From the NCBI GenBank assembly GCA_903944085.1, contig CAJAQO010000286.1:11009-75008 (forward strand): a stretch of DNA of 64,000 nt, in the 5' to 3' direction. The first letter of the stretch is position 1. Each line of letters begins with the position of its first letter. This document shows positions 12,326 to 19,586 of this stretch, in pieces. Both the position numbers and the translations under genes were made by a program. The notes beneath the pieces are model-generated. The model ran no database searches and had not been told where the DNA came from. It saw nothing but the letters and a program-made list of their open reading frames with translations. This stretch comes from an uncultured Verrucomicrobia subdivision 3 bacterium. Lineage in GTDB: Bacteria; Verrucomicrobiota; Verrucomicrobiia; Limisphaerales; UBA11358.

Positions 12326-12568
12326 CCGCGCATTTCGGCGGGAAAGCGAAATGAAGTCAAGCGGACAATTGCCGAACCAGTCGCCGCCATTCGCAAGCCG
12401 CTGAAGCCTTTCTGCTCCAGTGCTGCCAAAACCACCCGAAAGAGTGGCTGGCAGTTTTGCCCGCGCCTCATAAACTAGCGCCACAACCAAGTCTGCAACC
12501 GCGATTTTTTAGGCTGGGAAATTCTGGCCGGAAACTGCCGAGTGGACTTTGAAATCAATTACAACACC

Positions 12569-13225
12569 ATGAAAAATAAAACTTGTTTGATCCGCTGGTC
12601 GTTTGTCCCGCTGATGTTTGCGTCTGCCGCGATTTTGCTGGCCGGCTGCCAATCCTCAAAAACCAGTTGCTGTCAGAAACCGGAAACGGTGGCAGCGCCC
12701 GCAGCGGCGGCATCGGCAGTCGCGCCCGTGGTCACGCCGACTGCAACGCCGGCTTCGGCGGTTGCTGAATCAACTTTTCCCCTGCGCATCAAGGCCGGCC
12801 TCACCACGCCGCTCAAGGATGCGGATGGCAACACTTGGCTGCCGGAAACTGGCTTCGCGGATGGCGACACGATTGAGCGCGAAGACCTACAGATTGAAAA
12901 CACCAAGACGCCGGCGTTGTATCGCTCCGAGCATTACAGCATGAGCAAGTTTTCCGTGAATGTGCCCAACGGCAAATACACGGTGAAGCTGCATTTTTGC
13001 GAAACGTTTGACGGCATCGAAGGGCCGGGGCAGCGCGTGTTTTCCTTCAATGTCCTGGGCCATGAATTCAAGGATTTCGACGTGTGGGTCAAGGCGGGCG
13101 GCCCGCGCAAGGCTTATGTGGAAACCGTCACCGGGGATGTGACCGGCGGCAAACTGGAGATCAATTTCACCAGCAACATCGAGAATCCGCAGATCAACGC
13201 CATCGAAATCATTCCGGCGTCGTGA
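12569..13225 (+). CDS. malectin-domain lipoprotein
   Basis: Lipobox LLAGC after the signal peptide. C-terminal IKAG....KDADGNTW.PE ... LYRSEHY ... Y.VKLHFCETF ... GQRVFSFNV.G ... INAIEI matches the malectin (PF11721-type) pattern. Confidence 0.7.
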   Translation: MKNKTCLIRWSFVPLMFASAAILLAGCQSSKTSCCQKPETVAAPAAAASAVAPVVTPTATPASAVAESTFPLRIKAGLTTPLKDADGNTWLPETGFADGDTIEREDLQIENTKTPALYRSEHYSMSKFSVNVPNGKYTVKLHFCETFDGIEGPGQRVFSFNVLGHEFKDFDVWVKAGGPRKAYVETVTGDVTGGKLEINFTSNIENPQINAIEIIPAS

Positions 13226-13592: not shown

Positions 13593-13775
13593 GCGGGCAG
13601 TTTAAACGCGCGGCCGTGTTCCGGCAACCGCGCGGCATCATTTTTGTCTCGACATTTCGACGGAAATGGCAATTCATTAAACCAATCAAGAAAGATGTGC
13701 GTTCAAAGTCCATGAAACATTAACCGACGATTGCGGGACGGATCGGTCGTCCAGCCATTCAACCATGACAAAATT

Positions 13776-14078
13776 ATGACCCTGACCAAACGCGACTTAG
13801 TTGTGCGCATCAGCGAGGAAACCGGGCTGATCCAAACCCAGGTTTTTGATGTCGTGCAAAAAACGCTGGACTACATTGCCGAGGCGCTGGCCAAGGGCGA
13901 CAAGGTGGAGTTGCGCAACTTCGGCGTGTTCGACGTGAAAATCCGCAAGGCGCGTGTCGGGCGCAACCCCAACAAGCCGGCGACCGACGTGCCGATCCCG
14001 GCGCGCGCGATGGTGAAATTCAAGGCCGGCAAGGAAATGCGCGCCGAAGTCCTGAAGCTCACGCCGGGCACCAAGTAA
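13776..14078 (+). CDS. HU/IHF family DNA-binding protein
   Basis: MTLTKRDLVVRISEETGL ... LAKGDKVELRNFGVFDVKIRKARVGRNPNKPATDVPIPARAMVKFKAGKEM. The ORF-track start at 13731 is an alternative-codon extension. Confidence 0.85.
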   Translation: MTLTKRDLVVRISEETGLIQTQVFDVVQKTLDYIAEALAKGDKVELRNFGVFDVKIRKARVGRNPNKPATDVPIPARAMVKFKAGKEMRAEVLKLTPGTK

Positions 14079-14214: not shown

Positions 14215-15453
14215 ATGGAACGACTGCCTGGATTCCGCGATTTTTATCCCGAACCGCTCCCGCACCAAGACGTGTGGAGCGCCGACGCGCGCCAGTATAT
14301 TTTTGAAAAATGGCGGGCCATCGCCCGCCGCTACGGATTCCGCGAATACGACGGCCCGCCGCTGGAGCCGCTCGAACTCTTCACCACCAAGAGCGGCGCG
14401 GAGATCGTCGGCCAGCTCTACAATTTCATGGATAAAGGCGAACGCGCCGTCTCGCTGCGGCCGGAAATGACGCCGACGCTCGCGCGCATGGTCGCCGCGC
14501 ACGAACGCAATTACAAAAAGCCCATCAAGTGGTTCGCCATTCCGCAGCTCTTCCGCTACGAGCGCCAGCAGAAAGGCCGCCTGCGCGAACATTTTCAGTT
14601 CAACGCCGACCTCATCGGCGAGACCGATCCGGCGGCGGATGCGGAATTGATCGCGCTGCTCATTGACACGCTGCGCGCGTTCGGCCTGACCGCCGAGGAT
14701 TTTGTCATCCGCCTGAGCAGCCGCAATGCGTGGCACGATTTTTTCAAACACGGCGGCGGCGACACCGCGCACGAATACGATTTTTTCCAGGTAATTGACA
14801 AGCTGGAACGCAGCGCGCCGGAGGAGTCGGAAAAAAAACTTTCCGCGATGGGTTTTTCCGTGGCGCAGGTGAATGAGTTTATTACTTCGGGAAAACCGAC
14901 GGCGGAGTTGCAAAGCATCCTCGACAATCTGGCGGCGCGCGGGCTGAAGGATTTTGTAAAAATTGATTACCAGGTGATTCGCGGGCTGGCGTATTACACC
15001 GGCGTCGTGTTCGAGGCGTTTGACCGCAAGGGCGAGTTTCGCGCCATCGCGGGCGGCGGCCGCTACAACAATCTCGTGAAGCTCATCAGCGGCGGGAAGG
15101 TGGATTTGCCCGCGCTCGGCTTCGGCATGGGCGACGTGGTGCTGCTGGAAATTTTGAAAGCGCGCGGCCTGCTGCCGAAATTTGATTCGCCGATGGACGT
15201 GTATGTGCTAATCGAAGACGAGGCGCTGCGGCCCGATTCGCTGAAACTCATTCACGAATTGCGCGCCGCCGGCTACGCGGTGGAATATCCGCTCACGCCA
15301 ACGAAATCGGACAAGCAATTCAAGCGCGCGCAAGAATTGAAAGTGGCCCGCACCGCGCGTTTGGAGAACGATTCTTATGTTCGCATCCGCAATTTGAAAA
15401 CACGCGAGGAAATCGTCACCGGCATTGCCGGCGCGGCGAATCATCTCGGCTGA
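14215..15453 (+). CDS. hisS: histidine--tRNA ligase
   Basis: Class II aaRS HisRS blocks: PGFRDFYPE, LRPEMTP, RYERPQKGRLREHFQ-like (FRYERQQKGRLREHFQFN), GGGRYNNL and an anticodon-binding C-terminus. Confidence 0.92.
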   Translation: MERLPGFRDFYPEPLPHQDVWSADARQYIFEKWRAIARRYGFREYDGPPLEPLELFTTKSGAEIVGQLYNFMDKGERAVSLRPEMTPTLARMVAAHERNYKKPIKWFAIPQLFRYERQQKGRLREHFQFNADLIGETDPAADAELIALLIDTLRAFGLTAEDFVIRLSSRNAWHDFFKHGGGDTAHEYDFFQVIDKLERSAPEESEKKLSAMGFSVAQVNEFITSGKPTAELQSILDNLAARGLKDFVKIDYQVIRGLAYYTGVVFEAFDRKGEFRAIAGGGRYNNLVKLISGGKVDLPALGFGMGDVVLLEILKARGLLPKFDSPMDVYVLIEDEALRPDSLKLIHELRAAGYAVEYPLTPTKSDKQFKRAQELKVARTARLENDSYVRIRNLKTREEIVTGIAGAANHLG

Positions 15454-15475: not shown

Positions 15476-15507
15476 CCGGCGCTGACTTGTTCACCGCCGG
15501 TTTTTTT
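15476..15507 (+). terminator. intrinsic terminator after hisS
   Basis: Stem ccggcg (15476-15481), 13-nt loop, cgccgg (15495-15500), followed by ttttttt (15501-15507). Confidence 0.7.
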
Positions 15508-15732
15508 GCGCCGTTTTGCGGTGAATAACTCAATGGGTGCAACAGTCGGAAACCTTGATTTTACAAGTGAATCTGAATTATTCATCCGTTGCTCACCGCG
15601 CATTTTTGGTGGATAAGTTGTGCATATCAAATCGTAGGCAAAAACAGGAACTATGATATGATGTTTTCAGTTCATTGAAAGAACGAAGCGGGCAGTGGAA
15701 AGTAAAATTGACGCTGTTCGTTTCAAGATAAT

Positions 15733-16541
15733 CCCAGGCGACTGGGGAAAAGTCAGGTCAGGCTGGTTGATCTGGCTCCTCAAAAACCGGAGCGCAAGTT
15801 TCGGCGAGGCAGAATTCACCAGTTCCTCTGGCGGTGTTCGCACACCGTCACATGCGAATGAGGGACTTGGCGGCGAGGAACGATGAGAAGCCGTTCCAAA
15901 CCGAGTCAAGTATTTCAGGAAAGTTTCGATCCTGAATGAATCGCAGTCACCCAGAGGGTGAACGGTTGCTACTGTGTATCAGCACGGACGGATGACTCTG
16001 GCGGGTTCAAAAATAAAAAGTTGGGACCGCCAAAAGAAAGACGCTGAAAGGCGGGACAAAGGGAGCATTCGAACCGGGAAGACCACGACGGCCAGGCAAG
16101 CCGCGTGAAAAACTTCCGAGCGCCGGCGATGTTAAAAACGACACCGCTGGACTGTGAGATAAAATGCAACTTGAGAGAGCAGAGGCGAGACCCGTGGTTT
16201 TGGGCGAACGCACCGCCAAAAGCGGTGGCTGACCCGGAGCCAGTGGTCAAGACGCGAACAAAAAAATCGCAGGCGTGTCTTGACCTGGTTCGCAGGCCGG
16301 TGGCGCAACCACCAGCCGAAGCGAGCTGAAAAGCCTCACTCAAAATTCGCGCGGCGCAAGCCGCCGGACGGCCCTGCTACGAGGCCGACAACTCCGCTTG
16401 CCGTGGAGAATGGCGTCGGGAAACCAGCAGCCGCTGAAAAGCGTGCGCCAAATGCTGGCACGGGAAAGAGAGCTTGGCGAACTCCCATCCCCCATTTGTC
16501 CCGGTCTGACCGCAAGGTTGGACCGGGACTTATTGTTTTCA
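15733..16541 (+). ncRNA. candidate large structured RNA (family not recognised); boundaries approximate
   Basis: ORF-poor 1.3-kb gap between convergent hisS and acnA. On the + strand there are at least 11 local hairpins, five capped by GNRA or GNRA-like loops: GCGA 15738-41, GCAA 15794-97, CGCAA 16304-08, GCAA 16356-59, GCAA 16512-15. The last is a 14-bp stem followed by a T-rich tail (16499-16541). No covariation evidence is available. Confidence 0.3.
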
Positions 16542-16760
16542 GGTTGAAAGAATTCTAGTCAAGCCTGCTTTCGCTCATCGCACGAAGGTGATTTTCAAGC
16601 GGATCGGTTCGCCAATTGACTGGTAAAGCAGGGTTTTCGAAAAAATAGGATCGAGTCCCGCTTCAATCAAAAAACGTCTCTCATCAGCGCGCACCCGATT
16701 GCGATCAAAATACGTCGAATGAACAAAGACCAAAGGCGTTTTCCCTTGGCCTTTAATTAT

Positions 16761-19586
16761 TCAAGCCTTTGCCACCAACTGCCGCAACACATACGGCAAA
16801 ATGCCGCCATGCTGGTAGTAGTCAATTTCGATGGGCGTATCAATGCGGCAGCGGACGGCGACATTCTCCACGGAGCCGTCCTTGCGCGTGATCTTCAGCG
16901 TGAGGTCCTGCTGCGGCTTGATGTTTGCGTCGAGGCCAACGATGTCGTAGGTCTCCGTGCCGTCGAGTTTCAAGGTCTGCGCGGTGGTGCCTTCCTTGAA
17001 CTGTAGCGGCAACACGCCCATGCCGACGAGATTGCTGCGGTGGATGCGCTCAAAACTCTGCGCCACGACGGCTTTCACGCCGAGGAGATTGGTGCCTTTC
17101 GCGGCCCAGTCGCGGGACGAGCCGGTGCCGTATTCCTGTCCGGCCAAAATCACGAGCGGCGTGCCGCGTTTCTGATATTCCATGGACGCGTCGTAGATCG
17201 AAACTTTTTTGCCTTCCGGTTGCAGCAACGTGTCGCCGCCTTCCTGGCCGGCGAGCATCAGGTTTTTGATGCGCACGTTGGCGAACGTACCGCGCGTCAT
17301 CACGCGGTCGTTGCCACGTCGCGAGCCGTAGCTGTTGAAATCTTCCGCCGTCACGCCGTTCTCGATGAGATATTTTCCGGCCGGCGAGGTTTTCTTGATG
17401 GAACCGGCGGGCGAAATGTGATCGGTCGTTACGCTGTCGCCGAAAATCGCCAGCGCGCGGGCGCCGGTGATCGGCGCGAGGCTGCCGGGCGTCAACGCGA
17501 AGTTCGTGAAGAACGGCGGCTCTTGGATGTAGGTGGACTTGCGGTCCCACTCGTAAACGTTGCCGGTGCTGGAAGGAATTTCGTTCCACTTCGGATTTTG
17601 CGCGGCGAAATCCTTATACAAGCGGCGGAACACATCCGGCTCGAGCGCGGCCTGCATCAAGTCGCGGACTTCTTTCAGGCTCGGCCAGATGTCGCGCAGG
17701 TGGACGGGCTTGCCGTCCTTGCCGGTGCCGAGCGCGTCGTTGGCCAGATCAATATCCACGCGGCCCGCCAGCGCAAACGCCACGACAAGCGGCGGCGACA
17801 TGAGGAAATTTGCCTTGATGTTCTGGTGGACGCGCGCCTCGAAATTGCGGTTGCCGGAAAGCACCGACGCGGCGACCAAATTATTTTTTACAATCGCATC
17901 CTCGATGGCCGGATGCAGCGGGCCGGAGTTGCCGATACAGGTGGTGCAGCCGTAGCCGACGAGATTGAAACCGAGCTTGTCGAGGAACGGTTGCAAACCC
18001 GTCTTGTCCAAATAATCGCTGACGACGCGCGAGCCGGGCGCGAGCGAGGCCTTGACCGTGGAGTTGACCGTCAGACCTTTTTCCACGGCCTTCTTCGCGA
18101 GCAAACCGGCGGCGAGCATCACGGAAGGATTGCTGGTGTTGGTGCAGCTTGTGATGGCGGCGATCAGCACGGAACCATTGCGCACGTGGCCGTCCAGCCG
18201 CGGAGCCTTGGCGTGAATCGGATCGGCGGTCGGATGCTCAATGGCCATCTCGCGCTCGCTGGGCGGCAGTTGGCTGTTTGGGATGGCCTGCTGGCTGCCA
18301 CCACTCGGATGAATTTCGCCGCCGGCGGAAACATGCACGGAGCGCGACAACTCCTCGGCCTTCATGCCAAAACCGCTTTCCGTGACCGGCTTGCTGAACG
18401 CGCTGATGAATTCGTTTTTGAGTTTCGGCAGTTCGATGCGATCCTGCGGTCGTTTTGGGCCGGCTACGCTCGGCAACACGGTGCTGAGATCCAGTTCGAT
18501 TTCTTGCGAGTAGGTAATGTCACCCTTCTTCGGAATGCCCCACAAGCCTTGCGCCTTGTAATAATTTTCGTAGGTCTTGACCGCTTCATCCGTGCGGCCG
18601 GTGGCGCGGAGATAATTGACGCACTCGGCATCAATCGGGAAGAAGCCCATCGTCGCGCCATATTCGGGCGCCATGTTCGCGATGGTCGCGCGGTCCACGA
18701 GCGGCAACGCCGCCGCGCCGGGGCCTAAAAATTCCACAAACTTGCCGACGACTTTCGCCTTCCGCAAAATCTGCGTGACGGTGAGCGCGACATCGGTGGC
18801 GGTGACGCCCTCGCGAATCGAACCGGTGAGGTGAACGCCCACGACATCCGGCGTGAGAAAATAAACCGGCTGGCCCAACATGCCGGCTTCCGCCTCGATG
18901 CCACCGACGCCCCAGCCGACGATGCCGAGACCGTTGATCATCGTGGTATGCGAGTCCGTGCCGACGAGCGTGTCGGGATAATAAATTTCGCCCGCGTTCA
19001 GCACGCCCTTGGCGAGATATTCCAAATTGACTTGATGCACAATGCCGATGCCCGGCGGCACGACCTTGAACGTGTCGAACGCCTGCATGCCCCACTTCAA
19101 AAACTGGTAGCGCTCGCGGTTGCGCGTAAATTCCAAATCCAGATTCTTCGCCATCGAATCCGCGCCGCCGGCAAAATCCACCTGCACGGAATGATCCACG
19201 ACCAAATCCACCGGCACGAGCGGCTCGATGATTTTGGGGTTTTTGCCGATCTTGGCGACCGCAGTGCGCATCGCCGCCAAGTCCACCAGCAGCGGCACAC
19301 CGGTGAAATCCTGCAGCACGATGCGCGCGACCACGAACGGGATTTCCGCCGTGCGCGTCTCGGCGGCTTGCCAGTTGGCGAGCTCTTTGATATTCGCTTC
19401 GCTAACTTTCTTGCCATCGCAATTGCGCAGGACGGATTCCAGCACAAGTCGGATGGAAACCGGCAGTTTCGCGATCGGGCCGACGCCGGCTTTTTCCAGC
19501 GCGGGCAATGAATAGAATTTTCCCGGCTGGCCATTGCCGAGTTCAAACGTTTGCAGTGTGCCAAAAAGATTGTGTGGTGTGCTCAT
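16761..19586 (-). CDS. acnA: aconitate hydratase A
   Basis: 941 aa, collinear with AcnA/IRP: [51 protein letters not shown] and SGNRNFEAR. Confidence 0.93.

Follow-up and report, generated by a model that had tools for sequence, protein, structure and literature searches.

A MISL RNA gene with DnaA-type boxes upstream of its predicted promoter in a Verrucomicrobiota genome

What occupies the long gap between the convergent genes hisS and acnA in the genome of an uncultured Verrucomicrobia subdivision 3 bacterium (assembly GCA_903944085.1)? The locus lies within a stretch of 64,000 nucleotides (contig CAJAQO010000286.1, positions 11,009 to 75,008 of the forward strand), which we call the window and whose positions are used throughout. 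An earlier note on this sequence had described the gap between the convergent genes, and Pfam confirmed hisS at 14215-15453 (+) and acnA at 16761-19586 (−), with 1307 nt from stop codon to stop codon. The same note had suggested that the + strand encodes a large structured RNA, some 0.8-0.9 kb long, had left its class unassigned by eye, and had called for an Rfam scan. That scan (cmscan) identified window 15726-16485 (+) as RF03079, the MISL RNA, across model positions 1-751 of 751, scoring 606.2 bits where the family cut-off is 274.6 (E = 1e-183), and this was the single above-threshold Rfam match in the whole window. The earlier note could not match the region by eye to RNase P, tmRNA, 6S RNA, signal recognition particle (SRP) RNA or an intron, and the scan matched it to none of these; the unassigned class proved to be a catalogued family. 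Membership of the gap gene in the MISL family is virtually certain, and we put at roughly 0.93 the probability of our main reading, namely that the gap holds a single-copy, free-standing MISL RNA gene with DnaA-type boxes upstream of its promoter.

The core of the gene was delimited by the cmscan match, by canonical pairs in the window and by covariation:

15726-16485, + strand: MISL RNA core

Of the 177 model pairs, 161 are canonical in the window copy, and the others are mismatches or small deletions in variable stems. We examined the fold in 64 distinct homologues, using a MAFFT alignment that was not fitted to the structure and projecting the Rfam structure onto it from the window row. Standard pairs occupied 88.4% of the cells, compared with 36-42% when the 3′ partners were slid by 1-3 columns. 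Changes on both sides were found in 133 of 171 pairs, a strong compensatory signal in the covariation check that the earlier note had proposed, and 0 of 500 shuffles reached the observed values. About 110 positions of the RNA are invariant, and these nucleotides lie mostly in the linkers between hairpins rather than in hairpin loops. The large + strand RNA proposed earlier is thus borne out as a full-length MISL with strong covariation and a predicted span of about 870 nt.

The ten internal hairpins listed in the earlier note were all recovered as helices of the Rfam MISL consensus when this was mapped onto the window:

15733-46, 15787-804, 15831-48, 15877-97 and 15914-36, + strand: internal hairpins matching MISL helices
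15947-61, 16211-27, 16245-85, 16299-313 and 16351-64, + strand: further internal hairpins matching MISL helices

The description of the region as dense in GNRA loops was accurate in part, as 4 of the 19 model hairpin loops are exact GNRA tetraloops; in three further hairpins, the terminator included, a GCAA is closed by one extra pair. The assignment to the + strand agrees with the Rfam match, the promoter and the terminator, all of which lie on that strand. It also agrees with conserved G-U pairs, which would become A-C mismatches on the opposite strand; for example, alignment columns 725/764 hold U-G in 64 of 64 sequences.

MISL is already catalogued as a class, and the window copy is an ordinary member of it: it shares the helices, the phylum and the single-copy, free-standing gene type of RF03079 (Rfam type 'Gene; sRNA'), and no feature separates it from other members. 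By its accession range, we take RF03079 to come from the survey of Weinberg et al. 2017 (PMC5737381), the main text of which does not carry the name MISL. A full-text literature search found MISL named in one distinct paper, only as an Rfam test molecule for chemical mapping, and the large-RNA literature that was found made no mention of it. Of the bacterial non-coding RNAs that await a function, it is one of the longest.

Sequence and structure were conserved far beyond the strain and across orders, and no relative carried a protein gene at the homologous site; these were two of the points on which the earlier note had made its proposal depend. The closest HisS relatives (up to 95% identity) were metagenome-assembled genomes (MAGs) titled Verrucomicrobia subdivision 3 or Limisphaerales. 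The own genome contains one MISL copy, each of 30 of the 41 relatives contains one copy above the cut-off, and the 14 control genomes contain none. Among 401 sampled Verrucomicrobiota genomes, 32 had MISL above the cut-off, with two of the matches in other classes and most of the 32 in one further family of the same class. We assigned this family to the Opitutaceae because the MISL of one of its genomes is identical to that of a Nibricoccus sp. MAG. A degenerate 25-nt pattern made from the most conserved block matched at least 120 contigs among 185,579 species genomes. All 120 pattern matches listed were MISL by nhmmer, and their record titles were almost all Verrucomicrobiota, with Limisphaerales, Pedosphaera, Opitutaceae, Opitutus, Lacunisphaera, Nibricoccus and Chthoniobacteraceae among those listed.

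A few records carried other names. The 858-nt scaffold NZ_JALGRD010000041.1, from an isolate assembly of Stutzerimonas marianensis, is a MISL fragment and likely represents Verrucomicrobial contamination. Contigs bearing MISL or hisS also occurred in MAGs titled Bifidobacteriaceae, Dongiaceae, Saccharimonadales, Acidiferrales and Methylomirabilota, which look mislabelled or mis-binned.

A universal housekeeping RNA (RNase P, 6S, SRP or tmRNA) was rejected as an identity for the region, which matches only MISL above threshold; the only other Rfam family that cmscan reported there was P26, on the opposite strand and at 20.8 bits against a cut-off of 36. The own genome has genes for RNase P, 6S and SRP RNAs at other loci, so that MISL does not substitute for one of them.

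The conserved unit proved larger than the 751-position model, because it includes elements on both sides of the core:

15635-40 and 15654-62, + strand: σ70-type promoter found by promoter scan, with −35 TAGGCA, a 16-nt spacer and extended −10 TGnTATGAT
15669-15725, + strand: predicted 5′ leader, outside the Rfam model, with motif GTTCATTGAAAGAAC at 15670-84, a stem at 15682-87/15717-22 and an inner stem at 15693-97/15712-16
16486-16498, + strand: conserved C-rich 3′ linker CATCCCCCATTTG, outside the Rfam model and kept in nearly all homologues
16498-16539, + strand: intrinsic terminator found by terminator scan, a 14-bp GCAA-capped stem at 16498-16529 followed by TTATTGTTTT

In 82 Limisphaerales-like loci, the −35 and the extended −10 (TGnTAnnnT) are conserved and the spacer is variable. 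The −10 is followed by 6-7 variable bases and then by the near-invariant motif (C)AGTTCATTGAAAGAAC (15670-84), of which the Opitutaceae have the version GTTCCTTGATAGAAC in the same place. Of 147 homologues, 142 carry this 5′ motif, which lies 44-52 nt upstream of the model start, and from its position and that of the −10 we predict a transcription start near 15669. At the other end, the GCAA-capped stem that the earlier note had listed as its eleventh was found by the terminator scan; it covaries in relatives, with 8 covarying pairs and 97-100% canonical pairing in 147 sequences. The promoter-upstream element (TGTGCATATCAA), the 5′ motif and the 3′ linker each have one exact occurrence in the 5.8-Mb genome, and we therefore rejected the idea that they are general genome features, each being unique to the MISL locus. 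The predicted RNA would extend from about 15669 to 16539, about 870 nt, and we consider these boundaries likely.

Within the leader, the stem sequence varies by clade: it is AACGAA/TTCGTT here and CTGAGA/TCTCAG or CAGTCGC/GCGACTG elsewhere. In an anchored test, the longest complementarity in the leader averaged 6.7 bp within a sequence and 4.5 bp between sequences.

We scanned 147 extended sequences for mutual information and then counted pairs on the independent 64-sequence alignment; the counts support four helices, two of them long-range, that are missing from the displayed cmscan consensus line. Most of the top mutual-information pairs were two-state signals between clades and were discarded, and only helices with several pair types were kept:

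15837-42 with 15853-58, + strand: pseudoknot PK1, hairpin loop UUCGCA with UGCGAA; 89.4% of cells paired, both-side changes in 3/6 pairs
15964-69 with 16166-71, + strand: long-range helix LR1, GGUUGC with GCAACU, about 200 nt apart; 98.7% paired, both-side changes in 6/6
16123-27 with 16146-50, + strand: helix extension around the hairpin at 16130-43, CCGGC with GCUGG; 87.5% paired, both-side changes in 3/5
16152-57 with 16267-72, + strand: pseudoknot PK2, linker CUGUGA with UCGCAG; 98.4% paired, both-side changes in 5/6

The 3′ strand of PK2 (16267-72) lies within the loop of the 11-bp hairpin. Taken together, the four helices were paired in 93.8% of the cells, compared with 24-45% in slid controls. 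For the whole predicted RNA we infer a 56-nt leader, about 20 hairpins, one long-range junction helix, at least two pseudoknots and one further long-range helix. The long-range helices and pseudoknots suggest a compact three-dimensional fold rather than a loose string of hairpins, a hint that is relevant to structure determination of MISL.

We next turn to the DNA upstream of the promoter, which contains an array of DnaA-type boxes, one of them in the terminator of hisS:

15476-15507, + strand: hisS intrinsic terminator, stem CCGGCG/CGCCGG plus a T-run, read from the sequence
15487-95, reverse orientation: weak DnaA-type box TTGTTCACC, in the loop of the hisS terminator
15520-15528, + strand: GGTGAATAA, the distal DnaA-type box, at about −150 relative to the predicted start
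15578-15597, − strand: reverse DnaA-type box pair TTATTCATC-cg-TTGCTCACC with a 2-bp gap, positional homologue of TTGTTCACA-nn-TTGTTCACC in relatives
15608-15627, + strand: promoter-proximal box pair GGTGGATAA-gt-TGTGCATAT with a 2-bp gap, ending 7 nt 5′ of the −35

Boxes matching TGTGNATAA/TTATNCACA with at most one mismatch numbered 1.88 per locus between −140 and −35, compared with 0.07 in shuffles, and their positional peaks appeared in both orientations and in both major clades. A peak at −150 was found in 56 of 151 loci, and relatives with a gene other than hisS upstream again have 'cttgttcacc' at about −187. Across 127 loci, of which 107 had at least two boxes, the upstream region held 2.6 boxes per 165 nt; control regions of these loci held 0.1 (RNA body), 0.04 (downstream) and 0.02 (far upstream). 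When repeated 7-mers within a locus were counted without a prior motif, TTATTCA, TATTCAC and TGTTCAC came out at the top and TTCACCG was also returned, which is the same box; the local consensus of the boxes at MISL loci is TTRTTCACC. The gap between neighbours of the same orientation was 2 bp in 99 cases and 3 bp in 22, and every other gap from 0 to 30 bp occurred at most six times. This 2-3 bp spacing is the one preferred by E. coli DnaA, according to the part of PMC11317965 used here. The own dnaA gene (contig C124) has TGTGAATAA at −335 and GGTGAATAA at −41 from its start, in a genome with only 47 perfect boxes in total.

The array resembles DnaA-regulated promoters and non-origin clusters elsewhere (the E. 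coli regulon, the B. subtilis clusters, datA and DARS) in having several 9-mers that match TTATNCACA, mostly as same-orientation pairs 2-3 bp apart, just 5′ of a promoter and away from oriC. It differs in that the target is a large structured RNA gene and not a protein gene, and in that the local consensus ends in C, not A; binding by Verrucomicrobial DnaA is a prediction only. Whether DnaA really binds the predicted boxes is, in our judgement of the sequence evidence, an evenly balanced question. Three points may be new to the literature: the wider limits of the conserved unit, the additional helices and the quantitative evidence for the DnaA-box array.

Several points weigh against parts of the main reading. 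We infer from sequence the start of MISL, its end and its transcription itself. RNAalifold, run on a MAFFT alignment of the leader, recovered only the first Rfam hairpin and not the leader stem, which is the weakest of the structural claims, the anchored complementarity test being its one line of evidence. Because the sequences used to choose the extra helices by mutual information overlap with those used to score them, the scores are biased upwards to some extent, and some of the helices may already be marked as pseudoknots in the Rfam seed, which the consensus line cannot show. Among the boxes, the reverse pair of the window is degenerate, with 2 and 3 mismatches to TTATNCACA, and its assignment for this reason rests on position. 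Within this one genome, clusters of three boxes in 200 nt number 9 against an estimated 4-5 expected, which is not rare enough alone. A different factor with a similar site could also bind the boxes.

The alternative that survives best makes the box array the primary element, a locus that titrates or cycles DnaA like datA, DARS and the B. subtilis clusters, with MISL transcription modulating or accompanying it instead of being regulated by DnaA. The boxes are conserved across orders in a fixed arrangement, only nine clusters of such density exist in the 5.8-Mb genome, and B. subtilis provides a precedent, since stable DnaA complexes form there at a few intergenic box clusters (as the part of PMC2533591 used here has it). 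The constraint on the RNA is nevertheless far stronger and wider, with about 110 invariant positions and 133 covarying pairs, the RNA cannot be a by-product, and the proximal box pair abuts the −35, as at regulated promoters. We therefore regard a primary role of the array as unlikely, although a DnaA sink and regulation of MISL by DnaA are compatible and do not exclude each other.

Far less probable is that the box cluster marks a replication origin or terminus, with MISL as an origin-associated transcript. It is true that a DnaA-box cluster here adjoins a non-coding transcript with a strong predicted promoter. However, the window shows no GC-skew switch at 15.5 kb, and in the seven complete genomes of Opitutaceae that were compared, 0.16 to 2.2 Mb separate dnaA and MISL. 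GC skew in Opitutaceae genomes was sampled in 20-kb pieces. One complete genome, G229, has a first skew switch at 0.9-1.2 Mb and a second around 4.22-4.24 Mb; its MISL, at 4.393 Mb, lies only about 160 kb from the second. This switch is, however, of the + to − (terminus) type as well as some 160 kb off. In another, G100, the sign of the skew does not change within 400 kb of MISL in either direction. On the basis of GC skew and dnaA positions, the array is a non-origin DnaA-box cluster and the locus is neither oriC nor a terminus.

The same data contain an observation on dnaA itself. In G229, dnaA is at position 410 with negative skew on both sides, away from any switch, and in G100 the skew is negative throughout 2.05-2.85 Mb, a range that includes dnaA (2.293 Mb). 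Replication in these Opitutaceae may start at a site well away from dnaA. In the own genome, the densest DnaA-box cluster is at C75:21649-21782, on a different contig from dnaA, with five boxes in 134 nt in both orientations, and is a candidate oriC or another DnaA-bound locus.

We give almost no weight to the possibility that MISL is a cis-acting leader or riboswitch-like element for a neighbouring gene such as cysK, which lies 3′ of MISL in many relatives. In 39 of 186 loci, the next gene in the same orientation does encode a pyridoxal phosphate (PLP)-dependent enzyme (PF00291), with a median distance of 196 nt from MISL. Here, however, acnA lies downstream and is convergent; the RNA of every clade ends in an intrinsic terminator that is conserved and covaries; and the neighbours depend on the clade, being HrpB helicase, BipA and Rho in Opitutaceae and HisS, M23 peptidase or the PLP enzyme in Limisphaerales. 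No flanking family occurred in more than 41 of 186 distinct loci (22%), so that a constant protein partner did not emerge from the neighbourhood; the search for one on this basis was given up, the recurrent neighbours reflecting clade-specific synteny. Similarly, hisS lies upstream of MISL in only a subset of close relatives and acnA lies downstream in this genome alone, and we rejected hisS-MISL-acnA as a conserved synteny because the first link is patchy and the second is found in one genome.

In the Opitutaceae, MISL loci have a divergent gene for an HrpB-type DEAH helicase upstream and genes for BipA/TypA and then Rho downstream, all of them RNA- or ribosome-related. This arrangement is specific to that family and absent in Limisphaerales.

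A decayed protein gene, or an RNA component of a mobile element such as a group II intron, a retron or an insertion sequence-associated guide RNA, is hardly credible. The gap does hold chance open reading frames (40-124 aa on both strands, none of them conserved) and the genomic position of MISL varies between relatives, but the homologue alignment lacks 3-base periodicity, its columns being equally variable in each of the three phases. Most indels would shift a reading frame (lengths divided by 3 leave remainders 1/2/0 in 818/341/111 cases), and the window copy has 3-10 stops in each frame. In addition, stem changes are compensatory, each genome has one MISL copy, no reverse transcriptase or transposase is found among the recurrent neighbours, and Rfam gives no match to introns or other families at E <= 1.

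The conserved box array at the promoter provides a testable lead to the function of MISL. In the mechanism that we propose, DnaA would bind the paired boxes just 5′ of the −35 and those farther upstream, and this binding would couple MISL synthesis, in one direction or the other, to the state of replication initiation in the cell. The RNA itself would act in trans, as a compact protein-binding scaffold or a self-assembling particle, and would be neither a base-pairing regulator nor a cis element. We offer the scaffold or particle function tentatively and by analogy. It is favoured over a base-pairing regulator because the invariant nucleotides lie mostly in linkers rather than in hairpin loops, because the long-range helices join distant parts of the RNA, and because comparable large bacterial RNAs, in the part of PMC12286853 used here, proved to be self-assembling. 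As a further possibility, which we advance with some doubt, MISL may be a DnaA-controlled RNA whose level tracks the initiation potential, and the RNA or its locus, as a DnaA sink, may feed back on replication and cell-cycle homeostasis. If true, no large structured RNA would have been placed in a DnaA regulon before MISL, and this orphan RNA class would gain a physiological context. A limited literature search turned up no DnaA-controlled large non-coding RNA.

Among known systems, MISL is comparable in kind to OLE, ROOL and GOLLD, which are likewise large (>500 nt), heavily structured, lineage-restricted RNAs with many invariant nucleotides and a function that is unknown or emerging. The Rfam scan found no sequence or structure match of the MISL region to any of the three. 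ROOL and GOLLD often lie near tRNAs or in prophages, and OLE lies in an operon with the genes of partner proteins. MISL differs from them in having its own predicted promoter and terminator and no constant protein-gene neighbour. OLE, ROOL and GOLLD form homo-oligomeric particles, as described from cryo-electron microscopy in the part of PMC12286853 used here, and that MISL would oligomerise in the same way is a reasonable guess by analogy. Sponge RNAs of the CsrB/RsmZ type are similar to MISL in that a long series of local hairpins dominates. The MISL loops, in contrast, carry no repeated GGA-type motif, most invariant nucleotides are held by linkers, and the long-range helices and pseudoknots argue for a compact fold.

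The remaining observations concern the surroundings of the gene. Downstream of the MISL terminator, a segment of about 220 nt that reaches to the stop codon of acnA (16540-16760) is unassigned and showed no similarity to related loci or to the flanking proteins; a remnant gene was rejected there because related loci have no similar sequence. A hairpin at the acnA-proximal end of this segment could be the acnA terminator. On the other side, two + strand genes precede hisS, one for a malectin-domain protein and then one for a DNA-binding protein of the HU/IHF family just 5′ of hisS, neither with an evident link to MISL:

12542-13225, + strand: malectin-domain protein gene
13731-14078, + strand: HU/IHF-family DNA-binding protein gene

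Elsewhere in the genome, no tmRNA scored above the Rfam cut-off. Below the threshold there were tRNA-like matches and, where a contig ends (C47:58-171), a fragment covering model positions 56-185, which probably reflects an assembly break through ssrA.

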